Of a stretch of DNA of 64,000 nucleotides, positions 5,186 through 64,000 are shown in pieces (the first letter of the stretch is position 1; every line of letters begins with the position of its first letter). This DNA comes from Parcubacteria group bacterium (lineage in GTDB: Bacteria; Patescibacteriota; Minisyncoccia; Phycocordibacterales; UBA2135). The translations under genes and the position numbers were made by a program. Under the pieces are notes generated by a model. That model had not been told where the DNA came from and did no database searches. It saw nothing but the letters and a program-made list of their open reading frames with translations. Location of the stretch: contig JACOWN010000005.1 in the NCBI GenBank assembly GCA_016176785.1, forward strand, positions 1,202 through 65,201. The letters run 5' to 3'.

Positions 5186-5258
5186 CCGCCCATAGCTCAG
5201 TTGGTAGAGCAGCTCCCTTTTAAGGAGAGGGTCGCAGGTTCGAATCCTGCTGGGCGGA
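5186..5258 (+). tRNA. tRNA-Lys (anticodon TTT)
   Basis: Manual cloverleaf: acceptor CCGCCCA/TGGGCGG, D-stem GCTC/GAGC, anticodon stem GCTCC/GGAGA with one mismatch, loop CTTTTAA (U33, TTT, A37), T-arm GCAGG-TTCGAAT-CCTGC, discriminator A. No encoded CCA. Confidence 0.82.
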
Positions 5259-5328
5259 CAAAAGGAGGTTGGTACGATCACGCAGTCAGGAGAGAAATAC
5301 CGCCTTACAAAACAAGAGGTCTCCTCGG

Positions 5329-5354
5329 TTATCCACTTATCCACAGTATCCACA
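5329..5354 (+). promoter_or_regulatory. Cluster of three tandem DnaA-box-like 9-mers (TTATCCACT, TTATCCACA, gTATCCACA)
   Basis: Read directly: ggTTATCCACTTATCCACAGTATCCACAac. Two are perfect or near-perfect matches to the TTATCCACA consensus. They lie in a 430-bp non-coding, partly AT-rich spacer. Confidence 0.5.
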
Positions 5355-20521: not shown

Positions 20522-21619
20522 TTATGTGTTGAGCGGCATGACCAGTGCGGTAAACGACCGGTCGCCGACGTTCCGAACCACCACCGGCCGCGCTTCGCCG
20601 TTACACTGCAGCGAAACGCTGTCACTCGCGACCGACTGGAGACAGTCGGCAAGATACCGCTGATTAAAACGCAGCGTAACCGGTTCTCCGGAGAGCGCCG
20701 CGTCGAGAGAGACGGAGTGTTCGCCGATATCGGCGTTTTTTGAGGCAATGGTGAATTGCTTGGCGGACGGGTCTATCGTGAGCACGACCTGGTTGAATTT
20801 ATCCGCGAACAAATGCGACACCTTAAGCGCGTTAACGAGGTCTTGCTTCAACACGACCGCGTCCGTCGTGCTGGTTTTGGGAATAATTTGTTTGTAGTCG
20901 GGGAAAACCCCGTCAATCAAGCGTGACGTCAGGTATACCCCGTCATAGTGGAACGATATTTGATTTTTATCGCTCCGTATCATTACATCGCCGTTTTTAT
21001 CTTCAAACACGCGGATAATTTCCGCTACGTTTCTAAGGGGAACAAGAATTGAGAGGTCTTCTTTGTTGCCCTGAGACTGGATTTTCTTCTCAGATAAACG
21101 AAAAGAGTCGGTCGCGACGAATGTGCTGTATTCGGGATTGAGGGAAATGAAAACACTTGATATCTCAGGTTTTATGTCCGACGTTGATGCGCTGTACCAT
21201 ACCGATTTTAAGCCGTTCAAAAGCGTTTGAACGGGAAATGGGGATGTTTTTTCCGCTGATACAACGGGAAGTGTCGGAAAATCCTCGTACGGAAACCCTT
21301 TTATCAAAGAATTGTTTTTGCGGGTTTTTACAGATAAATTACCTTTTTCCTCCTCAAGAACGATATCATCTTCATTTATGTACGAGAGAAGGTTATTAAG
21401 AAGGTTCCCGGGAACGGCAATAATGCCTTCTTTTTTCATTTTCACCGGAACTTCAAATTCAATACCGATATCAAGGTTTGTTGAACGCACTTTTAACACG
21501 TCATCGCTTGCCAAAAGAAGGATGGTGCTCAAAATAGGCAGAGAAAGATTCTTTCCTGTCATTCGTTCCGCTCTTGAAACGGCATATTGCAGTTTATTTT
21601 TTGAGACGCTTATTTTCAT
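20522..21619 (-). CDS. dnaN: DNA polymerase III beta sliding clamp
   Basis: Three-domain clamp, N-terminus MKISVSKNKLQYAVSRAERMTGKN..., 365 aa, immediately downstream of dnaA. Confidence 0.9.
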   Translation of the reverse strand: MKISVSKNKLQYAVSRAERMTGKNLSLPILSTILLLASDDVLKVRSTNLDIGIEFEVPVKMKKEGIIAVPGNLLNNLLSYINEDDIVLEEEKGNLSVKTRKNNSLIKGFPYEDFPTLPVVSAEKTSPFPVQTLLNGLKSVWYSASTSDIKPEISSVFISLNPEYSTFVATDSFRLSEKKIQSQGNKEDLSILVPLRNVAEIIRVFEDKNGDVMIRSDKNQISFHYDGVYLTSRLIDGVFPDYKQIIPKTSTTDAVVLKQDLVNALKVSHLFADKFNQVVLTIDPSAKQFTIASKNADIGEHSVSLDAALSGEPVTLRFNQRYLADCLQSVASDSVSLQCNGEARPVVVRNVGDRSFTALVMPLNT

Positions 21620-21877
21620 AATAATAAAAAATATTTATATAAAAGGATTTTTATTATGATATATCTGTTGATATGTAGATAAGTGGGATTATTTTTACCA
21701 AATTATGCATTTTTTGAACGATTTATTTTTTATATCCTGTTGAAAATATGTGTATAAAAAACATTCTGTATTTTGAAACAACAGGATAATTTATTTTTTC
21801 ATATTATAAAAAATTTTTTTCAACACAGTATCAACAGAAAAAAGTTTCTTATGCACACACTTACGCACAGAAGGAAA
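21620..21877. promoter_or_regulatory. Candidate replication origin / DNA-unwinding region in the dnaA-dnaN spacer
   Basis: 258-bp strongly AT-rich spacer in a 60% GC genome. DnaA-box-like TGTaGATAA (21674-21682) and TTATCCtgT (revcomp at 21781-21789). Inverted CTGTTGAAA/TTTGAAACAACAG repeats. Confidence 0.45.
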
Positions 21878-23254
21878 TTACTGCTGTTGCGCGAACAGAG
21901 ACCGTATTCGTTCCAACTCATCCACAAGAACTGTATCTTTTTTAAGGTCGTTTTTTATTTTGTCGCATGAATGAATAACGGTTGTATGGTCACGTCCGCC
22001 GAGGCGCTGGCCGATGGTCGGGAACGAAATACTCAGATCCTCGCGAAGAATGTACATAATGATTTGCCGCGGTTTTACGATCTCTTTTTTTCGCGTCTTC
22101 TCATAGATGGTTGATTTTTCAATGTTATAGAACTCCGACACGACGTGCACAATATCTTCAACGGAGAGCGTTTTTCTCGGTTTCTCGTTGTTTTTAAGGA
22201 GTGTTTTAACTTCAAGCAAGGCAAGGTCCCGATTTTTGAGCTGCGCTTGGCATACGAGGGCGTTTAAAAGACCTTCAAGCTCCCTGATGCTCCCCTTTAT
22301 GTTTGAGGCGATATATTCAATGATCTCGTCGGACGGGCTAAAGTTGATGTGGCGTGACTTTGTCTTCAAAATAGCGACACGTGATTCAAAATCGGGGTCG
22401 GAGATATCAACTATCATCCCGGCGCCGAACCTGGATTTCAGCCGCTCCTCAAGATTTCCAATGAAATTATAATGCTTGTCCGAAGAAAAAATAATCTGCT
22501 TGTTGTTGTCATACAGCGTGTTGAAGAGATGGAACAGCTCGTCTTGCGTCCCCTGCTTCCCCGAAAGAAATTGAATGTCGTCCATGATAAAAACGTCATA
22601 CTTCCGGTATTTTTCTTTGAAAACGTTGATTTTATTGGCTTGGACGGATGTAATGAGGTCAAGATAGAATTTTTCCGAAGTAATATAGAATACTTTCTTG
22701 TCCCCGTACATCTCTTTAATTTTGTTGCCCGTCGCCTGGAGAAGGTGCGTCTTGCCGAGTCCGGTGCCGCCGTACACAAAGAGCGGGTTGTAAACCGAGC
22801 CGACACTCTTCATGATCGCTTGCGTCGCGGTGTAGGCAAGCTCGTTGAACGGCCCGACAACGAACGTGTCAAACGTATAACGCGGATTCAGATTGTCATC
22901 CTTGTTGATATACAGGTCTTTGAGAGGGAGCTCGCCGTAGAGCTGCGGCGCCGATTCCGCAAAGCCGGGCTTTTGCTGTTCGGTTTTTGAAATAACGATA
23001 TAGTCAATGCCGCGTATGTTTTCGCTGATCATGCGGAGCGATTTGAGGATGAATTTGTGGTACTTGTTTTGAAGCCACTCTTTAACAAACCCGTTCGGCA
23101 CGCCAAGATATACGACGCCGTCCGCCTCTTTGACGATAGAAGTGTTTTTGAACCATGTCGTAAAATTTGCCCGCGAAACGGCGCGTTCAATGTCCGCAAG
23201 AGCCGCATCCCACAACTGTTTGGTGTCGGAGATGTTGTGTTCTTGTTCTGGCAT
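21878..23254 (-). CDS. dnaA: Chromosomal replication initiator DnaA
   Basis: AAA+ Walker A GGTGLGKTHLLQATGN, Walker B IFIMDDIQFL, sensor/box VII, C-terminal DnaA-box binding HTH (DHTTVIHSCDKI). Confidence 0.93.
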   Translation of the reverse strand: MPEQEHNISDTKQLWDAALADIERAVSRANFTTWFKNTSIVKEADGVVYLGVPNGFVKEWLQNKYHKFILKSLRMISENIRGIDYIVISKTEQQKPGFAESAPQLYGELPLKDLYINKDDNLNPRYTFDTFVVGPFNELAYTATQAIMKSVGSVYNPLFVYGGTGLGKTHLLQATGNKIKEMYGDKKVFYITSEKFYLDLITSVQANKINVFKEKYRKYDVFIMDDIQFLSGKQGTQDELFHLFNTLYDNNKQIIFSSDKHYNFIGNLEERLKSRFGAGMIVDISDPDFESRVAILKTKSRHINFSPSDEIIEYIASNIKGSIRELEGLLNALVCQAQLKNRDLALLEVKTLLKNNEKPRKTLSVEDIVHVVSEFYNIEKSTIYEKTRKKEIVKPRQIIMYILREDLSISFPTIGQRLGGRDHTTVIHSCDKIKNDLKKDTVLVDELERIRSLFAQQQ

Positions 23255-23299
23255 GTTGGTGTGATGAATGAAAAATTTTTAGCGAGCGTCTCCGGCGAG

Positions 23300-23420
23300 A
23301 ATGCATTTCCTTTTATCCAATTATATAGCACGTTCCACGCGATGAAACTTGTTAAAAGTGCAATAGTATGTTGATAATCTGTTTATAAACTGTGGACAGT
23401 GTTCATACGCGCATCCAGTT
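23300..23420. promoter_or_regulatory. dnaA upstream region with DnaA-box-like 9-mers
   Basis: TTATCCAAT, TGTtGATAA and TGTGGAcAG-type matches read in 23305-23400. Divergent from rpmH. Confidence 0.35.
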
Positions 23421-23461
23421 CCGTTTTGACTTTGCCTGATTTTGTTATACACTCAATACTA

Positions 23462-23596
23462 ATGTCAAAAACATACCAACCAAAACGCAAGAAAAGAAAA
23501 CGCACCCACGGTTTTCTTATCCGTATGCAGAAAAGCGGCGGGCGAAGAACGGTCCTGAGACGGCGGCGGAAGAGGCGCGCCCGTTTATCCGTTTAA
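23462..23596 (+). CDS. rpmH: 50S ribosomal protein L34
   Basis: [44 protein letters not shown] matches the canonical L34 pattern. The track ORF starts upstream at 23399. Confidence 0.9.
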
Positions 23597-52504: not shown

Positions 52505-53422
52505 ATGAAATTAATGTCGCACAATCTTCGGGGACTCAAAAAAGAGTTTTTGGAATATCTTGAAATAGAAAAAGGGCGCGCGGCGCGCACCATTGAATTG
52601 TACGACCAGTATCTCGGCAGGTTTCTCCGCTTCCCCGGCCTCAAAAACGCCGCCGACATCACGGACGAATCGGTGCGTCGTTATCGGCTTGCCTTAAACC
52701 GCGCGGGAATGTCCAAAAAAACGCAGAATTTTTACCTCATTGCGTTGCGGCAGTTTTTGAAGTTTTGTGCGCGCCGCGGCATCGCGTCGCTTCCCGCAGA
52801 ACGCATAGAACTTGCGAAACAAAGCGACCGCGACCTTGACCTCATTTCTTCGGATGAGCTTGAACGCCTGCTCGCCGCGCCGTCCGGTTCCGATGAAAAA
52901 AATCTTCGCGACCGCGCCTTGCTTGAGCTCCTTTTTTCAACCGGTCTTCGCGTTTCGGAACTTTGCGCGCTCTCGCGGCATCTTGACTGGAGCCGCGATG
53001 AGATCTCCGTGCGCGGCAAGGGCGGCAAGGTGCGTCTCGTGTTCCTTTCGCCGCGCGCGAAAAGCGCGGTTAAGGCGTACCTCGCGAAGCGTTCTGACAT
53101 CGGCGACGCGCTCTTCGCGCAGGCGGAGCGTCGTGCGAAAAACAAAAGCGTATCCGAGCCGCGCCGCATCACGCCGCGGCTTGTGGAACGCATCGTGAAG
53201 CACCACGCGATACGGGCCGGCATTGATAAGCGGGTGACGCCGCACATGCTTCGGCACATGTTCGCGACCGACCTCCTCCAAAACGGCGCCGACCTTCGTT
53301 CCGTCCAAGCGCTTCTGGGGCATGCGCACATTGCAACGACACAGGTCTATACGCACGTAACGGACAAGCACCTGAAAGACATCCACCGCGCCTTTCACGG
53401 GAAAGGGCTTGGGGAAAAATAA
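52505..53422 (+). CDS. Tyrosine site-specific recombinase (XerC/XerD-like)
   Basis: N-terminal SAM-like core-binding domain. Catalytic R...K...HMLRH..AT..L..G.DLRSVQALLGHAHIATTQVYTHV with the Tyr nucleophile. Confidence 0.85.
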   Translation: MKLMSHNLRGLKKEFLEYLEIEKGRAARTIELYDQYLGRFLRFPGLKNAADITDESVRRYRLALNRAGMSKKTQNFYLIALRQFLKFCARRGIASLPAERIELAKQSDRDLDLISSDELERLLAAPSGSDEKNLRDRALLELLFSTGLRVSELCALSRHLDWSRDEISVRGKGGKVRLVFLSPRAKSAVKAYLAKRSDIGDALFAQAERRAKNKSVSEPRRITPRLVERIVKHHAIRAGIDKRVTPHMLRHMFATDLLQNGADLRSVQALLGHAHIATTQVYTHVTDKHLKDIHRAFHGKGLGEK

Positions 53423-55872: not shown

Positions 55873-55944
55873 GCACCCGTGGTGAAACGGATATCACAAC
55901 AGGCTTCGGACCTGTCGTTGGGGGTTCGAATCCCTCCGGGTGCA
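55873..55944 (+). tRNA. tRNA-Arg (anticodon TCG)
   Basis: Acceptor GCACCCG/CGGGTGC. D-stem GTGA/TCAC. Anticodon stem ACAGG/CCTGT, loop CTTCGGA. T-arm GGGGG-TTCGAAT-CCCTC (one G-U pair). Discriminator A. Confidence 0.8.
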
Positions 55945-56096
55945 TCAACACGAACAGAGCCGGACGCGGAGCGTCCGGCGACTTTCGTGTTTGCGTCGGG
56001 AGGGATTCGAAAGACGGAGGCGGGGGTACCCCGCAGAATGCATCAACACGAACAGAGCCGGACGCGGAGCGTCCGGCGACTTTCGTGTGTGCGTCG
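55941..56096 (+). repeat. Two ~58-bp direct repeats (55941-55998, 56039-56096) starting in the last 4 nt of tRNA-Arg. Each contains hairpin GCCGGACGC-ggag-GCGTCCGGC.
   Basis: TGCATCAACACGAACAGAGCCGGACGCGGAGCGTCCGGCGACTTTCGTGT(T/G)TGCGTCG read twice. The 40-bp spacer carries an inverted TTCGAATCCCTCC 13-mer identical to the tRNA-Arg T-arm/acceptor junction. Confidence 0.7.
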
Positions 56097-56130
56097 TTAT
56101 TTGAAAACTCAAGCGTAGCGCCGTCACAAC

Positions 56131-56198
56131 ATTCTCATATTCTTAAGAATATGAGAATGTTTTTGCGGTAAAAAGCCGCTCCCAAGAGAGCGGCTTAA
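56131..56198. terminator. Back-to-back terminators: ATTCTCATATTCTT/AAGAATATGAGAAT palindrome plus T-run (+ strand) and AAGCCGCTC...GAGCGGCTT plus T-run (minus strand, for the ClpP-like gene)
   Basis: Read directly. Confidence 0.6.
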
Positions 56199-56206
56199 TT
56201 CGCGCA

Positions 56207-56803
56207 TCACGCATCGGCTTTCAAAATCTCATGTATGATGCCGAGCTCAAGCGCCTGTTCGGCGGTCAGTCGCGTTCCGTTTATTCCCCCCGCCAGTTCA
56301 TGAAAATTTTTTTCGCTCATCGCGAAACGCGTTCTCTCGGCGAAAATTTTTGCAACAATCTCTTCCTCGTCCTTCAATTCGCGGAGCATATCCCCGATTA
56401 TCGTGAGCGTCAGACGGCCGGAAGGCGCTCGCTCTTTCAGGTCTTTATATTCAAACGCCCCCTCATGGATATGAAAACGCGTGTATTTCCCCGCGACGCG
56501 ATGTGCGCCGGCGAGAAAGAGAACGAGTGCCATTGAGCTCACCTCGCCAAGGGCGATCGTCCGTATGTTGCAGCCGGAGTTCATTAAGAGGTCATACAGG
56601 GCAATGCCTTCGGGCGTTGTTCCGCCAAGCGACGTCATCTGGATATTAAACCACCGCGGTTCACGCGCCGCCTCCTCCCCTCCCTCCTTTTCAAGAAATG
56701 ACGCAAGCCGTTCCGTGACTTTCTTTACCGTTATCTCCGCTATGGAGCCGGACAATATCAACAGCTCATTGTCTATCGCGTTCAGATAGCGCATTGTCGT
56801 CAC
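56207..56803 (-). CDS. ClpP-like (S14/crotonase-fold) serine peptidase family protein
   Basis: SLGGTTPEGIALYDLL...GEVSSMALVLFLAG...RFHIHEG resembles the ClpP Ser and His regions. It is divergent and may be a prohead-protease-like or inactive homologue. Confidence 0.5.
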   Translation of the reverse strand: MTTMRYLNAIDNELLILSGSIAEITVKKVTERLASFLEKEGGEEAAREPRWFNIQMTSLGGTTPEGIALYDLLMNSGCNIRTIALGEVSSMALVLFLAGAHRVAGKYTRFHIHEGAFEYKDLKERAPSGRLTLTIIGDMLRELKDEEEIVAKIFAERTRFAMSEKNFHELAGGINGTRLTAEQALELGIIHEILKADA

Positions 56804-57015
56804 CCGTTCACGGTCGTCTGCTTATATTGTGCGCGCTTTTTCTCCAAAAGAAAGGCGGCGCGCACTTGCAACTCCCCCTTTTTTGTTTCAGTGTTCTGTT
56901 TGAAGAAAAGCGCGCGGCATAGTATAATCCCACAAACGCGGGCTCCCGCACATTTTATATCACCGCGCTTTGCGTATTTCGTTTTTTTCAAAACAATGGT
57001 GTAAAAAATGTAAGA

Positions 57016-57086
57016 GCGGGCATAGTTTAGTGGTAGAACACGACATTGCCAATGTCGAAACGGGGGTTCGATTCCCCCTGCCCGCA
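57016..57086 (+). tRNA. tRNA-Gly (anticodon GCC)
   Basis: Acceptor GCGGGCA/TGCCCGC. Anticodon stem CGACA/TGTCG, loop TTGCCAA. T-arm GGGGG-TTCGATT-CCCCC. Discriminator A. Confidence 0.85.
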
Positions 57087-57334
57087 CAATAGTGGACTTT
57101 TTGCGATTCGGCGCATCAATCGCCGTTTCTATGTCAGAAAAATTGGAGGTTCTAACATCATCTAATTGCCCGCGTAGAGAAATTGAATTTTTTATTGCAG
57201 GGGAATAAATTCTTCTGAAAAATAAACCGTTTTTAAATGTTTTGAAGGAGGTTCTAACATGCCGTTGCAATTTATCAAAGTTTAAAGTAAGTTGGTAATA
57301 GAGCAAAAGAGCCATCCTGTCACAGGAGGAAAAG

Positions 57335-57655
57335 ATGAGGAGCAAGGTCTCAGTCATTTGCTGGTCGATTTTTGCAATTACAGTGATCGGCGCAGGAATC
57401 CTGATTTCAGATGCCTGTAATAGTGATCCAACTGGATGCGGATACGTGTTCGGATTAGGACCAATAGTTTTTTTGATGTATGGCGGTCTCCTTTATCTGC
57501 TCATCCCGCTTGTTGGTATTATCTTTGATGCTTACAAATGGAGGATGTTGAAGGACAAGGGGGTTGGAATTTGGGGAAGAACCGTGGGCACTTCTGTTTC
57601 TTTTGTCATCTCTGTCTGGGCATTCCCACTTTTACTTCTTCTGATCGGATTTTAA
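57335..57655 (+). CDS. Cassette 1 cargo: small 3-TM membrane protein
   Basis: AGGAGG SD 7 nt upstream. Hydrophobic helices VICWSIFAITVIGAGILI, IVFLMYGGLLYLLIPLVGII and SFVISVWAFPLLLLLIGF. Confidence 0.4.
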   Translation: MRSKVSVICWSIFAITVIGAGILISDACNSDPTGCGYVFGLGPIVFLMYGGLLYLLIPLVGIIFDAYKWRMLKDKGVGIWGRTVGTSVSFVISVWAFPLLLLLIGF

Positions 57656-58230
57656 CCAATCAGGCGCACGACCCACATACGGGTACGGCGCCTATTTTTT
57701 GTTGATGAGCTTTATGTACGTTGTGTTTGTTCTCGAATGGTACCCATAAAAATATCTCAGCCTGCTTCTATCAGCGTATTAAAGCGTTTTTGAAGCGTAG
57801 TAAACCATCATTGACTAGACTCATTACCGCCCCCTAGAGAGGTTCTAACCTGTTCTCCTAAAGTGCATAAAAATAACGAGCACAAAGCGGAGCTTTGGGC
57901 GACTATGTTTTTATAGCGGGTAGGGAGAATCGAACCGAGGGCTGGCGAAAGAAATCCATGAGAGTGACCGATCCCCCTGCCCGCACAATAGTGGACTTTT
58001 GACGCCCTCGCGCATCAATCGCCGTTTCTATTTCAGAAATCTTGCGGGTTCTAACATCGTCTCGTTGCCCGTATAGGGAAATGGAATTTTTTATTGACGA
58101 AAAATAAAATATTCTGAAAAAGAAACGGTTTTTTGATGACTTACCAGAGGTTCTAACACGGTTTACATTTGGGACACTATCTGTTAAATTGGTTAATAGA
58201 ATTCAAAGTGCAAGATTATGGAGGGTTATT

Positions 58231-58542
58231 ATGCCTAAAGCAGACGTGGTTCTTGAAATCTATTTTGACATTAATAATCCAGAGAAAACTGTAATAAAAA
58301 CCAACGCCAAGGAAGAAGCACTTGAAGAGATACTTGAAGCATGGCTGTATTGCCAAATTGGACAGGGTAAAGATGAGAGCAAGCCGAACAGACAGGATAC
58401 GTACAAAATAAAAATCCAATTGGATTTAAGCGACGACACTTTCTACACCAACAGCAATACGGGGAACAAAGGACTTACCTGCGGAATCATTATGGACGTG
58501 TTCAAGAGGTTGGGTCAGATCGAGGTTCTTAATCTTTCATAA
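58231..58542 (+). CDS. Cassette 2 cargo: small hydrophilic protein (103 aa)
   Basis: GGAGGG SD. Start at MPKADVV inside the track ORF 58189-58542. Followed by terminator GGCCGACATGTGTCGGCG plus a T-run. Confidence 0.35.
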   Translation: MPKADVVLEIYFDINNPEKTVIKTNAKEEALEEILEAWLYCQIGQGKDESKPNRQDTYKIKIQLDLSDDTFYTNSNTGNKGLTCGIIMDVFKRLGQIEVLNLS

Positions 58543-59099
58543 ATCATCAAGACAAAAAGTTAACGCCGACACATGTCGGCCTTTTTCTTTTAGAAAGGTT
58601 CTAACGTCGTCTATAAAAGTGCACAAGACAACAAAAATACAGGGCTTTTGTCCTGTATTTTTGTTGTCGTTATGCGAGGTAGAGCGAGCAAACTGCTTTG
58701 CTCGCGTGGGGAATCGAAAAGCGGAGCCATCCTGAGCGAGCGAAGCGAGTCGAAGGGGGCGAGCTCGGGGAGGAAGTTCTTAGCGAAGACGAGCGCGAAG
58801 TTTGAGCTTAGAAACTTGACCCCGATTCCCCCTGCCCGCACAGAATTTCATTTTGGGCGCTTCGTCAACGCTTAGGGTGTTTCTAGATCAAAGTTTTTAC
58901 GGGTTCTAACAACGCTCCTTTTCTTGTATAGGGAAGGAGAACTCTATAGAACTTAAAAATTAAAATTTTCTGAAAAACAAACGATTTTTTCATAATTTTG
59001 CAGAGGTTCTAACTTGTATGACGTTGCCTTGTGTTTTTTTTGGTTTGCGTTATATTGAACCTAGAATGCAACTAACTTCATCAAGAAAAGGAGCTCGGA

Positions 59100-59741
59100 A
59101 TGAGCAAGCTTCTCCATATCTTTTTTGCTTTAATGATAGCGATGGGATTGTCATCCACTTCTTCGTTCGCAACTGAACACGACGGGAATCCCAGTCTCTG
59201 CGAAAATCCGTGGGAATCGGAAGGCAGCACGTCGAGTGCGACTGAAATAGGAAGAAGCAGGCGCATCATCTCCGAGTGTAAGGTTGTTAATCCACAAACT
59301 CTGGATATTTCTTCAAACCCCGCTCTTGCTGATTTTTTGGGCGAAATAAAAAAAGATCTGTGGGACACTGAAAGATTGCCCAAAGATGTTCTCTATCGTT
59401 ATACCCTGACGATTATTAACGATTGGGACAAAAATGTTTCTGTAAATCTTTCGAGGTGGGAAGTTGTGCACTCACCGTACACATTGGTAGCGAAAGGTTT
59501 TGTTGTTGATATTCCAGCATGTTCGTATGCTCGCATTCAGTTTCTTTCTCCGTGGGCTCCTGAACTGTATGCTTCCCCCGTTAACATTGGCATGACGACT
59601 AAGGACGGAGAATGGTCAGCAATAGGCGACGGTATAGCAAGTATTCTGACGCCGGTGTGGTACCAGTATTTTTCAGAAGGAATGAATGTTGATCGCCTGC
59701 CTCCAGATGAAACAAAAACAAAGGCGTGTTCTTCAAAGTAA
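59100..59741 (+). CDS. Cassette 3 cargo: secreted protein (signal peptide, 213 aa)
   Basis: AAGGAG SD. Signal peptide MSKLLHIFFALMIAMGLSSTSSFA. Cys residues present. No known motifs. Confidence 0.4.
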   Translation: MSKLLHIFFALMIAMGLSSTSSFATEHDGNPSLCENPWESEGSTSSATEIGRSRRIISECKVVNPQTLDISSNPALADFLGEIKKDLWDTERLPKDVLYRYTLTIINDWDKNVSVNLSRWEVVHSPYTLVAKGFVVDIPACSYARIQFLSPWAPELYASPVNIGMTTKDGEWSAIGDGIASILTPVWYQYFSEGMNVDRLPPDETKTKACSSK

Positions 59742-59949
59742 TAGCCATTTTTGGACAAACGAGCCCTGCGAATAAGTGGGGCTTTTTGTTTAAAAACAGG
59801 TTCTAACTTGTTCTCCTAAAGTGCATAAAAATAACGAGCACAAAGCGGAGCTTTGGGCGACTATGTTTTTATAGCGGGTAGGGAGAATCGAACCGAGGGC
59901 TGGCGAAGCGTATGCAACGCACAAACAATCGATTCGCGGGGATTTTTGT

Positions 59950-60746
59950 GGGAAATTACGTTTCACATGAAAACTTTTGCAAAAGAATGAGAGTATAGTT
60001 TTAATCTTCTGGGGATAACTCTGTGGATTTGTGTATAAAGGACATTGGTTGTTTTTGTCTTTTTGCTCATGATGTCCTATTTGTTCCTTTATTTTCCTGT
60101 GTTTTTATGTTATTCTAAAAAAGACAATCAAAATTAGTTTATGGTTTTCACGTGAAACATAGCGATAGTTTTCACGTGAAAACACTTTTCATGTGTAACA
60201 TACTAGTGAGTTAGTTACATGTGAAATGATTTTTCTGTGTAATAATGAAGTATCTAGATGAACTTAAGAAATTGCGTTTACATTGCGGAGAATATGCCGT
60301 TTTTGGCTCCGGACCGCTTGCGATAAGAGGATTGGTAGAAAACACCGACATTGATCTTGTCGTTAGCGGTGACTTATGGGGGAAGTTAAATAAAGAATAT
60401 CTGAAGCGTTAAAAATCGTAGTTTCATGTGTAACACATGGCTCCGCATAATAAAATCGGAACATTGGGGGAAAATATTGCTTGCCGTTATCTTGAAAATA
60501 GGGGTTTTGATATTATTGAGCGGAATTATAGAAAACCGTGGGGAGAAATTGACATTATTTCCGTAAAAAATGGTTTTCTTCATTTTATTGAGGTAAAAAC
60601 GGTTACACGTGTAACAAGCAATGGTACGCAAAGAGGAGAGTTCCGCCCCGAGGACGCGGTTCACCGGTGGAAACAAGAGAGAATGCGGCGAGTTATACAG
60701 TCATACCTATCTGATTACAAGAAAAGGAATGTTACACGTGTAACTG
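59950..60746. repeat. Nine copies of a CACGTG/CATGTG-centred palindrome (TTTCACGTGAAA / GTTACACGTGTAAC) in 800 bp
   Basis: Copies read at 59950, 60144, 60168, 60186, 60213, 60421 (overlaps the yraN-like ATG), 60601 and 60731. The last two lie inside the CDS and both encode VTRVT. Region GC is ~33-38%. Confidence 0.65.
60245..60412 (+). pseudogene. 56-codon ORF resembling the N-terminus of a minimal nucleotidyltransferase (possible gene fragment)
   Basis: MKYLDELKKLRLHCGEYAVFGSGPLAIRGLVENTDIDLVVSGDLWGKLNKEYLKR. The G[SG]x(9-13)DxD pattern is present but the protein is far too short. Below the ORF-track cutoff and found by reading the sequence. Confidence 0.25.
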
Positions 60747-60853
60747 ATCAAAACTCCGGAGAACAAAATTGGCAGTTTGATATAGTCGCCATTGAACTTA
60801 ATTTAGAACAAAAAACATCAAAAGTTAGATTTCTGGAACAAATGACTTTATAA
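60437..60853 (+). CDS. YraN/UPF0102-family endonuclease-like protein
   Basis: IGTLGENIACRYLENRGFDIIERNYRKPWGEIDIISVKNGFLHFIEVKT is the family signature (PD-(D/E)xK-like core). AT-rich codon usage. Confidence 0.72.
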   Translation: MAPHNKIGTLGENIACRYLENRGFDIIERNYRKPWGEIDIISVKNGFLHFIEVKTVTRVTSNGTQRGEFRPEDAVHRWKQERMRRVIQSYLSDYKKRNVTRVTDQNSGEQNWQFDIVAIELNLEQKTSKVRFLEQMTL

Positions 60854-60943
60854 AGGACATTTGTCCTTTATAAATGTCTTTTACAAAACATTCGGTTGCG
60901 GAACGGTGGTTTTTATTTTTGACGCGTGATATATTTCTTGCAT

Positions 60944-61014
60944 CGGGCTGTAGTATATCGGCAGTACACATGCATGGGGTGCATGTAGGCCGGGTTCGAT
61001 TCCCGGCAGCCCGA
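60944..61014 (+). tRNA. tRNA-Pro (anticodon GGG)
   Basis: Acceptor CGGGCTG/CAGCCCG. D-stem GTAT/GTAC (one G-U pair). Anticodon stem CATGC/GCATG, loop ATGGGGT. T-arm CCGGG-TTCGATT-CCCGG. Discriminator A. Confidence 0.78.
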
Positions 61015-61162
61015 ACGCAGTGAGGGATGAGCAGGCAAACTGCTTTGCCTGCGTCCGGAATCGAAAGCCGGAGCATCCCGCCAAGGGCGGGAGCGAGGCG
61101 GGGTCGCAAGTACTTATGAGCGGAGCGAATTAGTAACTTGTGACCGATTCCCGGCAGCCCGA
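61015..61162 (+). mobile_element. 130-bp insertion remnant flanked by 18-bp direct repeat of the tRNA-Pro 3' end (60997-61014 and 61145-61162). Homologous to the A' arm of the tRNA-Gly array.
   Basis: CGATTCCCGGCAGCCCGA read twice. Internal GAGCAGGCAAACTGCTTTGCCTGCGTCCGGAATCGAAAGCCGGAGCATCCC (61029-61079) is ~80% identical to 58683-58733. Confidence 0.6.
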
Positions 61163-61191
61163 TATATCAGATTGGTTTAGATATTTATTCC

Positions 61192-61842
61192 ATGAAAAAA
61201 CAATTTTTTATTTCGCTGGTCATTTTTCTGGCGGTTTTTGCGTACGCCGTCATCAGATACAACGTACTTAAAGGTACTCCCTGGATTGACCTGCCTCTTT
61301 TTGTTTCCAACAAAGCTATTTCACTTTCTGCCGTCATATTCATTGCGCTCTCATATGCGCTCGGCTCCCTCGCGCGGTTTTGGCCGGAAACAATTCTTTC
61401 TGTCTTGACCTTTCGCAAATTTTTTGGATTGCTCGGCTTCGGGCTCGCGGCATTTCATGCCGCCGTCTCGCTGCTCATTTTTACGCCATCGTATTATCCG
61501 AAGTTCTTCTTGGGTGGGGAAAAACTTAACCTTACCGGAGAGCTTTCTTTATTTTTTGGTGTTTTAGCATTTTTTGTTTTTACGCTGGTAGCCATTTCCT
61601 CAATTCCCGCAGTGGCACGAGCGATGGAGCGGGAACGCTGGCTGGCAATCCAACGGTTCGGCTACCTCGGTCTTGTCCTGGTCTTTTTCCACGTGTTCGT
61701 TATGGGTTTTGAGGGGTGGCTCCGACCCGCCGGTTGGCCCGGCGGGTTGTTGCCGATAAGCCTTATTGCCGCCGTTGTCATAGCATTGGCGCTGTTATTA
61801 AAAATTGCGGCAACGATTTTTTCTAAAAAACGGATCGGATGA
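61192..61842 (+). CDS. Ferric-reductase-like transmembrane domain protein (MsrQ/YedZ-like, 6 TM, conserved His pairs)
   Basis: Six hydrophobic helices with His residues in helices 3 and 5 (FGLAAFHAAVSLL, VLVFFHVFVMGF), the heme-binding arrangement of the ferric reductase domain. Confidence 0.5.
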   Translation: MKKQFFISLVIFLAVFAYAVIRYNVLKGTPWIDLPLFVSNKAISLSAVIFIALSYALGSLARFWPETILSVLTFRKFFGLLGFGLAAFHAAVSLLIFTPSYYPKFFLGGEKLNLTGELSLFFGVLAFFVFTLVAISSIPAVARAMERERWLAIQRFGYLGLVLVFFHVFVMGFEGWLRPAGWPGGLLPISLIAAVVIALALLLKIAATIFSKKRIG

Positions 61843-61922
61843 AAATGCGGTTGGGGAGTATGACACGCAAAAAGTCAGCTCCGCCGTCGGCGGAGCTGAC
61901 TTTTTCTGGTTCGTATTGCGCG

Positions 61923-62474
61923 CTAGCCGATCACTTCTTTTTTTATCTGCTCCCACCACGAGAGCGTGTCTTCCTGCAATTTTTTATACACGCGATCGTA
62001 AATTTCGCGGAAAAATTCGTTGCCGCCCTCAATTTCTTCGCCGCATTTCGCAAGGAGCGTGAGGCGGTCCGCCATTTTCACGATTTGCGCTTCAAGCGTT
62101 TTTGATTCGCTTTCCTCATTCCAGAGCCGCTCATAGTGGCGCGCAAGCCTCGGCGGGAGATCGCGAAATACTTCTTTGATGCTCGCCCTATTTACCCTTC
62201 GGATGGCGTCGTTCACTTCTTTTGAGTGATGCTTGAAGGGGGAAAGAATATCGCCCGAGAATATTTCGTCCATATCATGCACGAGCGCCATGGTGATCGC
62301 CTTTTCGGAATCCATTTCGTATTTCCTGTTTTTCAAAAGTTGGCAAAGAAGCGCGGTAGTGTATGCGACGTAAAAAGAGTGCGTCGCGACGTTCTCATGA
62401 AAATGCTGCGGTCGCGCGTTGAAGCGAACGATGTGCGCGAGTGACCGGTTCGCTATGTGGTCAAAAAGAGGCAT
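61923..62474 (-). CDS. HD-domain 5'-deoxynucleotidase (YfbR-like)
   Basis: H...HD (ATHSFYVAY...LVHDMDEIFSGD) metal-binding motif typical of the YfbR family. 183 aa. Confidence 0.7.
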   Translation of the reverse strand: MPLFDHIANRSLAHIVRFNARPQHFHENVATHSFYVAYTTALLCQLLKNRKYEMDSEKAITMALVHDMDEIFSGDILSPFKHHSKEVNDAIRRVNRASIKEVFRDLPPRLARHYERLWNEESESKTLEAQIVKMADRLTLLAKCGEEIEGGNEFFREIYDRVYKKLQEDTLSWWEQIKKEVIG

Positions 62475-62557
62475 GCCTTAAGTATAGGGCGTACAGAACA
62501 AAGTATAAAGCGCACTGTATGGACGAAACGGTTGTTTGTTGGTAAAATTGACATAAT

Positions 62558-63313
62558 ATGTTGCAAGAACTGCAAGAATTAGGGCTTTCGGAGAAGGAAG
62601 CGCGAGTGTATCTCGCCGCTCTTGAACTTGGTAAGGCAACGGCGGATGAGATAGCGAAGCAAGCCAATATAAAACGATCAACAGCGTATGTCCAAATCGG
62701 GTCTCTCCAAAAACAGGGCCTTATGAGTTCGTACGAAGAGGGTAAAAAAACATACTTTTCTCCCGAATCGCCCGAAAATCTCCGACGCACCGTTGAGAGA
62801 CAAAAACAAAATATAGATTTTAAACAGCAGGAGCTTAACAAAATTTTGCCTGAACTCTCGCATCTTTTTGAAGGTGTTGGTGAACGACCGCGCGTGAGAT
62901 TTTTTGACGGGAAAGAGGGGATCACGAGTTTACGTGAGGAGATCTTTCATGCTAAGCGGGGGGTGGCGTATGTCATCTATTCTTTTGACGCCCTCGCTTC
63001 TATTTATTCTGAAGAAGAACTCATTGCTTTTGCGGAGAAAAGAGCCGCAAAAAAGATCCCCTTTAAATTGATTTACACACGTGAAGAAGGAAAATTCGGG
63101 TATCCTGTACGCACACCATTTACCGAACGACGTTTTATGTCGCCTGAACGCATGCCCCTGAGCGCAGACATCTTTGTGTTTGATAATCGTGTCGGCGTAA
63201 TGTCATTGAAAGGAAAAATTTTTGGTGTTCTTATTGAAAGCGAAGAAATCGCGGAAAGCATCCGAAGTATTTTTAACGTTCTTTGGAATATCGCGGAGGA
63301 GGAAGTGTCTTGA
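62558..63313 (+). CDS. TrmB-family transcriptional regulator
   Basis: N-terminal wHTH LSEKEARVYLAALELGKATADEIAKQANIKRSTAYVQIGSLQKQGLM. Coiled-coil linker. C-terminal TrmB-type effector domain. Confidence 0.68.
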   Translation: MLQELQELGLSEKEARVYLAALELGKATADEIAKQANIKRSTAYVQIGSLQKQGLMSSYEEGKKTYFSPESPENLRRTVERQKQNIDFKQQELNKILPELSHLFEGVGERPRVRFFDGKEGITSLREEIFHAKRGVAYVIYSFDALASIYSEEELIAFAEKRAAKKIPFKLIYTREEGKFGYPVRTPFTERRFMSPERMPLSADIFVFDNRVGVMSLKGKIFGVLIESEEIAESIRSIFNVLWNIAEEEVS

Positions 63314-63333
63314 GTTTCTTTAAGGAAAAAAGT

Positions 63334-63370
63334 AAGGCCGCGTTGCCCTTGAGCAACGCGGCCTTTCTGC
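63334..63370 (+). terminator. Rho-independent terminator after the trmB-like gene
   Basis: AAGGCCGCGTTGC-ccttga-GCAACGCGGCCTT plus TCTGC. Followed by further hairpins CGGCGGCTGG-cta-CCAGCCGCCG and GTCGCCGC...GCGGCGAC. Confidence 0.6.
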
Positions 63371-63672
63371 ACGGCGGCTGGCTACCAGCCGCCGCCTCCG
63401 TCGCCGCCTTCCGTGAGAGCGGCGACCCTCTTCCTTAAGAACACTACTCCACCCTCCTTTTTGTAGGTGGCTGCCCTAGTGCCCTAGATAGGCTGGGGCA
63501 TCTTTTGCATTGTATCCGAATTCAATGATTTTGTCAAATATTGCTGACGAGCGCAGTTTTCATGCAGGGCTCGTAAAATTTATGTCAAAGAATAAAAACA
63601 AAAATATTACCCATAAAAACCCTTATTTATCAACGTTTTTTTTGAGTCTTAAAAATAAAAAGGCAAAAATAC

Positions 63673-63700
63673 TTGACAAACTTTTTTGTTCGTGTATACT
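63673..63700 (+). promoter_or_regulatory. Consensus sigma70-type promoter TTGACA-16-TATACT
   Basis: -35 at 63673-63678, -10 at 63695-63700 with an upstream TG. Sits in an AT-rich ~200-bp spacer. Confidence 0.6.
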
Positions 63701-63706
63701 GCCATC

Positions 63707-63830
63707 AGGAAATGACGAGAGGGCTCGCGGCGACTATGCCAGCGTGCCCTTTCATTTGGGTTCTTGCGGAGGAGCCCTCACGCGAGAACCCAAATATGAG
63801 GGTGCGCAAGATTGAAAAATAAGCGTTTTG
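63707..63830 (+). ncRNA. Candidate structured leader/riboregulator downstream of the promoter (stem GGGTTCTTGCG/CGCGAGAACCC with loop-to-upstream pseudoknot GAGGGCTC/GAGCCCTC)
   Basis: Complementarities read directly: 63754-63764 pairs with 63779-63789, and 63717-63724 pairs with 63770-63777. Followed by AAATATGAGGGTGCGCAAG and an 8-codon mini-ORF. Continues beyond the window. Confidence 0.3.
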
Positions 63831-64000
63831 CGGCATTACAACAGCACGCGGGGCACAGAGGAATATCCTCCCCATAAAACAAAAGGCCCGTACAGCGTGC
63901 AAAAGCCGAAAAATCCTTATTTTACAAATGAAACGCACCCCGGAGAAGAGGTCGAGCATTACGAGTGTTCATAATTGCCGTTCTTTGAGTAATTTCATAG

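Follow-up and report, generated by a model that had tools for sequence, protein, structure and literature searches.

A probable chromosomal parS array at the cca-yraN locus of a Parcubacteria group bacterium

The DNA considered here is a stretch of 64,000 nucleotides (the window) from the 65,631-bp contig JACOWN010000005.1 of the Parcubacteria group bacterium assembly GCA_016176785.1, and the element in question is a compact group of palindromes that lies within and immediately upstream of the gene yraN. The window is chromosomal DNA of a metagenome-assembled genome (MAG), in which Pfam scans of the large open reading frames (ORFs) recognise the core genes for PolA, RuvC, TyrRS, PBP1, PNPase, UvrD and PolX, together with a cluster resembling a type IV secretion system of the kind typical of Candidate Phyla Radiation (CPR) bacteria. 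The classical origin neighbourhood, rpmH-rnpA-yidC-jag and dnaA-dnaN, is found at 20.5-25.6 kb, with an extremely AT-rich dnaN-dnaA spacer that contains DnaA-box-like motifs. Since the palindromes are found at about 60 kb, they are 37 kb from dnaA, an origin-proximal position of the sort associated with chromosomal parS sites, the DNA elements to which the partition protein ParB binds. In a relative in which dnaA and yraN are both located on one contig (JALNYN010000002.1) the two genes are 50 kb apart. The argument set out below is that the palindromes probably represent a parS array.

A site was counted where the DNA has no more than two mismatches to GTTWCACGTGWAAC / GTTWCAYGTGWAAC, written GTTWCA[C/Y]GTGWAAC, and there are eight such sites in the window, all of them within 59960-60744. 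The sites and the features among which they are placed are as follows.

59960-59973, no strand: parS-like site 1, GTTTCACATGAAAA; weak, with two mismatches to the 14-bp core and a CACATG centre
60010-60038, minus strand: trio of DnaA boxes, TGGGGATAA-ctc-TGTGGATTT/TGTGTATAA as read on the plus strand
60039-60144, no strand: spacer, T-rich and AT-rich, from the DnaA boxes to the block of four sites
60145-60158, no strand: parS-like site 2, TTTTCACGTGAAAC
60169-60182, no strand: parS-like site 3, TTTTCACGTGAAAA; 24 bp from site 2
60186-60199, no strand: parS-like site 4, TTTTCATGTGTAAC; 17 bp from site 3
60214-60227, no strand: parS-like site 5, GTTACATGTGAAAT; 28 bp from site 4
60245-60412, plus strand: ORF of 55 amino acids, seen only in contigs of the same organism
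60421-60434, no strand: parS-like site 6, GTTTCATGTGTAAC; ends 2 nt 5' of the yraN ATG
60437-60853, plus strand: yraN (UPF0102/PF02021, Pfam E=2e-22; NCBI MBI1999233.1), a predicted endonuclease of PD-(D/E)xK type
60602-60615, no strand: parS-like site 7, perfect palindrome GTTACACGTGTAAC, in frame in yraN (VTRVT) and directly 3' of the EVKT motif
60731-60744, no strand: parS-like site 8, perfect palindrome GTTACACGTGTAAC, identical to site 7 and likewise in frame (VTRVT)
60847-60874, no strand: perfect 13+13 palindrome TTTATAAAGGACA-tt-TGTCCTTTATAAA, terminator-like, spanning the yraN stop codon

The central four sites (2-5) thus have centre spacings of 24, 17 and 28 bp. Half of the eight sites have a perfect CACGTG centre, the other four having CATGTG or CACATG. 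The clustering is far beyond what base composition would provide: in 5000 dinucleotide shuffles of 59930-60860 the mean number of sites was 0.017 and the maximum 2, and over the whole window 17 strand-hits were observed against 2.1 expected from shuffles. The remainder of the 64 kb has no site at two mismatches or fewer to the CACGTG pattern, and the other AT-rich stretches (21000-23500, 57000-59900 and 60900-64000) have none at all. Local excess is coupled to rarity elsewhere, both in the window and, as described below, in the corresponding loci of relatives. A preliminary description of this DNA had counted nine palindromes. Eight of them are borne out here, the ninth (CACATG over the ATG at 60437) having at least four mismatches and not being credible. 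The two perfect 14-bp palindromes in the coding sequence, each read as VTRVT, are in frame as had been stated, whereas the copy thought to overlap the yraN start codon (site 6) in fact stops short of it. Similarly, the G+C content of about 35% is correct (0.348 measured) but is not the lowest in the window, as 21501-22000 is lower at 0.308.

What kind of protein-binding site might these palindromes be? Published chromosomal parS sites have the sequence TGTTNCACGTGAAACA in Bacillus subtilis and Corynebacterium glutamicum and GTTTCACGTGAAAC in Mycobacterium smegmatis, and near variants are listed for many phyla, among them variants of the central bases in Thermus and Deinococcus (PMC7022226). 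Judged by its letters, the 14-bp motif of the window is the core of this pan-bacterial parS site. None of the eight sites departs from GTTWCACGTGWAAC at more than two positions, and two of them are perfect palindromes; scored by the strict 16-mer TGTTTCACGTGAAACA they have 2-5 mismatches, the closest match being the 16-mer of site 2 (GTTTTCACGTGAAACA) with two.

The association of this motif with yraN is a property of the class. A YraN scan of species-representative genomes provided 80 loci, 1.2 Mb in total with 10 kb on either side of the gene, all from Patescibacteria of the Parcubacteria/Paceibacteria kind and with YraN proteins 36-47% identical to that of the window; a metagenome scan for closer relatives gave YraN identities of at most 48%. 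Within this DNA there are 370 motif sites, of which 219 are within 250 bp of the yraN start and about 60 more are placed 1.25-2 kb upstream, with practically none elsewhere within 10 kb. At least one site is found at yraN (-300 to +400) in 78 of the 80 loci, with a site inside the gene in 69 and a site in the 300 bp upstream in 75; the median is four sites per locus (range 2-8). The consensus of the 370 sites is tGTTTCACGTGAAACa, a figure that is partly circular because the sites were gathered with the search pattern itself. A second set of 80 metagenome loci, which partly overlaps the first and includes some of the same contigs, has 1.65 sites per kb in the vicinity of yraN, the density elsewhere being 0.036 per kb.

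The genes around the array are equally constant. The order xer-cca-tRNA-yraN is conserved across the relatives, with the gene for the CCA-adding enzyme (cca) on the strand opposite yraN in 68 of the 80 loci. A Xer-type tyrosine recombinase, encoded at 52505-53422 in the window and some 4 kb upstream of yraN in the relatives, has about 60% identity throughout the class and keeps its synteny with cca-yraN in 52 of the 80 loci. The intervening tRNA is directly seen in one related locus (L026) and is a tRNA-Arg in the window. In the relatives cca adjoins yraN, whereas in the window about 4.5 kb of lineage-specific, lower-GC DNA (55900-59900) separates cca and the tRNA-Arg from yraN; this insert contains a ClpP-like gene, a tRNA-Gly and three orphan ORFs without homologues in the related loci. 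Searches of the inserted ORFs against PHROGs and Pfam returned only the ClpP-like protease and nothing mobile, so that a foreign element was rejected, and no tRNA remnant was found upstream of the array. AT-richness itself is a general trait of the yraN locus that is exaggerated in the window: in the relatives the G+C content of yraN is on average 5.4 points below its surroundings, and the upstream DNA is 9 points below; the 18 points by which it falls at yraN in the window are extreme.

The sites that fall within genes are informative since they must satisfy a coding sequence as well. The first intragenic site in yraN always comes just after the catalytic EVK[S/T] motif, and the position of site 7 is occupied in most relatives. 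Here the choice of codons departs strongly from that in the rest of the same gene: among the relatives, arginine is written as CGT in 40/59 cases (68%) at the site against 109/670 (16%) in the rest of yraN, serine as TCA in 41/59 (69%) against 81/330 (25%), valine as GTT in 62/81 against 251/795, and glutamate as GAA in 42/45 (93%) against 497/983 (51%). At the same time the encoded peptide drifts, appearing as VSRES, VSRDT, VTRGT, VTHET, ISRAT, VTRVT and others. This combination of biased codons and variable peptides shows that selection acts on the DNA and not on the peptide, with the yraN coding sequence accommodating the DNA element and not the reverse; the codon test also excludes a coding artefact as the origin of the sites. 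Site 8 lies in a 10-residue insertion of the window YraN that is present in at most one of 80 homologues. The relatives' upstream sites are inside cca, at three recurrent codon positions, for example as FSRET, encoded by TTTTCACGTGAAAC, in 40 of 101 loci. In the window cca this FSRET site has been lost, with YGNET in its place, and the cca-internal sites are gone, the sites being concentrated at yraN. The motif is thus conserved as DNA whatever its coding context, in yraN, in intergenic DNA and, on the other strand, in cca.

A further element accompanies the palindromes. Upstream of yraN in the relatives, at -100 to -300 from its start (e.g. loci L004, L012 and L047), there is a module of about 35 bp, TGTGGATAA-nnn-TGGGGAcA-TGTGCATAA-AGGAC, after which come AT-rich DNA and a pair of parS sites. 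The window copy is at 60010-60047, and the 55-amino-acid ORF, which is probably a gene remnant, puts about 400 nt between it and yraN; a match of this ORF to the N-terminus of a nucleotidyltransferase was not significant (E=0.18). With DnaA boxes scored as TTATCCACA-type with no more than one mismatch, the 500 bp upstream of yraN are 15-fold enriched: they contain 133 boxes in 74 loci, whereas other DNA has about 0.12 per 500 bp. There are 1-3 boxes per locus, 123 of 127 have the same orientation and 55 are perfect. Beside the likely centromere the module may serve as a secondary binding site for DnaA or as a promoter under DnaA control, or it may belong to an origin. The first two roles are preferred here, because the dnaA-dnaN region has DnaA-box clusters of its own and a spacer that is AT-richer than the yraN locus, in the window and in relatives, and because gene orientation around the relatives' yraN shows no divergence beyond the immediate cca/yraN pair. 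Within 10 kb of the dnaA-dnaN region there is no parS. Elsewhere in the window, at 5329-5354, three tandem co-oriented DnaA boxes (TTATCCACT, TTATCCACA and GTATCCACA) are arranged head to tail just 3' of a tRNA, 16.5 kb from dnaA.

The identity of the motif, its clustering, its position near the origin, its class-wide conservation at one address and the selection on it as DNA together point to the palindromes being, in all likelihood, the ParB-type centromere of the Parcubacteria/Paceibacteria chromosome. How would such an array work? By analogy with characterised systems, ParB dimers would recognise each palindrome through their helix-turn-helix domains, then bind cytidine triphosphate (CTP), close to form a clamp and slide onto the flanking DNA, leaving the site free for reloading. 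Both CTP-dependent clamping by ParB and the loading of SMC have been reviewed (PMC7022226). With eight loading sites in only 0.8 kb, a dense ParB complex, or a strong loading zone, would be expected at a distance of 37 kb from dnaA within the origin domain, and this complex may be moved by ParA, may load SMC-ScpAB near the origin, or may do both. The array is anchored at cca-yraN throughout the class, with sites presumably tolerated in frame by loops of YraN and, in the relatives, by loops of the CCA-adding enzyme as well, and with the conserved DnaA-box trio as its neighbour. Occupancy by ParB may also have a secondary effect in damping yraN transcription, as a site 2 nt before the ATG and two intragenic sites could obstruct expression.

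Several observations weigh against this interpretation. None of the window sites is a perfect canonical 16-mer, half of them have the CATGTG or CACATG centre, and A stands in place of T, symmetrically, at core position 4/11 of the two best palindromes. The density of eight sites within 0.8 kb also far exceeds that of the chromosomal arrays in the review, whose table gives 3-22 sites per chromosome (PMC7022226). No ParB or ParA gene is present in the window, in about 160 yraN loci (10 kb on either side) or in the 10 kb on each side of dnaA from two relatives, whose dnaA neighbourhoods, found with the DnaA of the window, have conserved synteny and no parAB. A six-frame pattern search for the ParB arginine patch gave nothing convincing, and tblastn with Spo0J and Soj of B. 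subtilis found no match in the window or in the roughly 160 loci. A Spo0J query against 5.8 billion proteins returned only Bacillus proteins and is uninformative with respect to the CPR. Exact-protein look-ups meant to extend the contig yielded only short Logan contigs. Binding by a CPR ParB is a prediction. As neither gene was found in the window or the fetched loci, we infer the reader for the window genome from the wider distribution of ParB: in a survey of 2321 CPR draft genomes the ParB family (PF02195, K03497) was recorded in 1717, compared with 1985 for GyrB and 1983 for EF-Ts (Méheust et al. 2019), numbers by which ParB appears close to universal in these bacteria. In the same survey UPF0102 (YraN) was found in 1688 genomes, ScpA in 1010 and ScpB in 1006 (Méheust et al. 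2019).

Other explanations for the array have to be weighed against the same evidence. The suggestion that the palindromes are operators for a dimeric regulator, made in the preliminary description, has something right in it, in that they are iterated sites to which, presumably, a dimeric protein binds, and yraN expression may be affected as a by-product. In this form the sites would serve a transcription factor controlling yraN (and cca), such as the TrmB-family helix-turn-helix protein encoded nearby (62558-63313), and their likeness to parS would be coincidental or convergent. In 75 of 80 relatives a site does immediately precede yraN, where it follows a promoter-like module bearing DnaA boxes, and TrmB-like genes are present in the window and, no more than 10 kb away, at 28 of the 80 related loci. 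The sites, however, are not confined to a promoter but lie deep inside two coding regions, yraN and cca, at fixed in-frame positions, in up to eight copies, which is atypical of an operator, and with a 14-bp core identical to the pan-bacterial parS consensus. The TrmB-like genes, moreover, vary in distance and orientation, are only 19-53% identical and are missing from most loci, and with this lack of synteny with yraN the TrmB-like protein was rejected as the reader. A dedicated operator array is improbable. Little better placed, and still improbable, is the possibility that the yraN locus is itself a replication origin, part of a bipartite origin or a DnaA-titrating cluster, in which the palindromes are origin-associated elements. 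It draws on the enrichment and shared orientation of the upstream DnaA boxes, the AT-rich spacer that follows them, the divergence of the flanking cca and yraN and the positive GC skew to the right of the locus. Yet one to three boxes per locus are few, the canonical rpmH/dnaA-dnaN region is intact in the window and in relatives with clusters of its own and a far AT-richer spacer, and divergence in the relatives is limited to the immediate gene pair. The proposal also leaves the parS-type palindromes unexplained, and it is compatible with a parS array and not opposed to it.

The preliminary description had further raised a restriction-modification or recombination site cluster and a small palindromic repeat element, which can be taken together as a cluster of short sites or of mobile repeats borne by an AT-rich islet of foreign origin. 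In favour of this, CACGTG serves as a recognition sequence of type II, the region from 57 to 61 kb has a lower G+C content and lineage-specific ORFs, and an 18-bp repeat of a tRNA-Pro 3' end is present at 61145-61162. Against this, conservation extends over 14 bp and not 6, the motif is confined to a single locus in the 64 kb and in the 10 kb on either side of the relatives' yraN with no dispersed copies, and the in-frame positions of the sites are orthologous across 80 genomes, a positional conservation that largely refutes the idea. There is no similarity to plasmid or phage DNA in the region, and neither a restriction enzyme nor a methyltransferase of DNA was recognised close to the locus by Pfam scans of the window ORFs. 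Nor is the nuclease gene foreign, as the preliminary description had suggested, since yraN and its synteny, together with the motif cluster, are native to the class and conserved across 80 Paceibacteria genomes. Such an origin for the array is extremely improbable.

A more far-reaching possibility builds on the parS array instead of replacing it. Cca, the DnaA-box trio, the parS sites and yraN might form a hard-wired centromere module in which the function of YraN is tied to the machinery of partition or of initiation; for instance, yraN expression could be gated by occupancy of both ParB and DnaA, or YraN could act on origin-domain DNA. In its more radical form, some protein that is not canonical ParB could read the parS-like sites in this lineage. 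The lack of a ParB gene near the roughly 160 loci, the link to yraN in 78 of 80 and the conserved sequence, spacing and orientation of the module are consistent with these ideas, which are regarded as unlikely.

Read as a parS array, the locus has evident similarities with known systems. It has in common with the chromosomal parS sites of B. subtilis, C. glutamicum, M. smegmatis, Caulobacter crescentus and others the palindromic core, multiple copies in the origin domain, degenerate copies beside strong ones, and sites inside genes. In B. subtilis, a parS site is found inside spo0J. The window locus differs from these, apart from its density, in being tied to cca-yraN and not to parAB, with no parAB nearby, and in its locally preferred variant, GTTACACGTGTAAC, for which ParB binding is predicted. 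Plasmids and prophages have centromeres of tightly iterated repeats, such as sopC of F and parS of P1, and the array resembles these in having many close-set binding sites that would form one partition complex. The window locus, by contrast, is chromosomal, with core-gene synteny and without plasmid or phage similarity. Plasmid centromeres use plasmid-specific sequences. Chromosomal sites share the conserved palindrome (PMC7022226). The DnaA-box module is likewise reminiscent of a familiar arrangement, as a small co-oriented group of consensus boxes in the origin domain, tens of kb from dnaA. Clusters of DnaA boxes outside oriC occur as the DnaA-box clusters of B. subtilis and as datA in Escherichia coli. 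Here, though, the boxes make up a fixed module of about 35 bp that adjoins parS sites and stands upstream of one particular gene throughout the class.

A number of other features of the window can be recorded. One arm of the palindrome at 60847-60874 repeats TATAAAGGACA of the DnaA-box module (60034-60044), 815 bp upstream, and this palindrome may act as a terminator hairpin, or else bracket the array as a second motif for protein binding. The last 18 nt of tRNA-Pro(GGG), 60997-61014, are exactly repeated at 61145-61162, 148 bp downstream, with 130 bp of GC-rich DNA between, in what looks like the scar of integration or excision at a tRNA. The G+C content is 0.557 over 1-56000 against 0.439 over 57000-64000, and GC skew is consistently positive after about 57 kb, the cumulative skew minimum, with 7 kb available on the right side; these changes past 57 kb may reflect replication, coding strand or foreign DNA. 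Finally, the tRNA-Stop that ARAGORN calls at 5186-5259, with anticodon tta at position 35, has the anticodon loop CUUUUAA, the standard one for tRNA-Lys(UUU); the call most likely arose from a shifted register, and a suppressor tRNA was rejected.

As a kind of element a parS array is well known, but its conserved location at cca-yraN is previously undescribed, and no paper in the library searched ties parS to CPR/Patescibacteria or to yraN. The novelty lies in the lineage, the fixed address at cca-yraN, the class-wide embedding of sites in frame, the high density of sites and the DnaA-box module that accompanies them. The finding places the likely centromere of a large uncultured class at a precise and recognisable locus, which offers a landmark of the origin domain in fragmented MAGs, and the array represents a concrete DNA substrate for the biochemistry of CPR ParB, ParA and SMC. 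It is also a clean natural case of a protein-binding DNA element that has been kept in frame over long evolutionary distances, with a protein loop yielding to the constraint on the DNA. This raises the question of why it is that DnaA boxes and yraN should always accompany the likely centromere of these bacteria.

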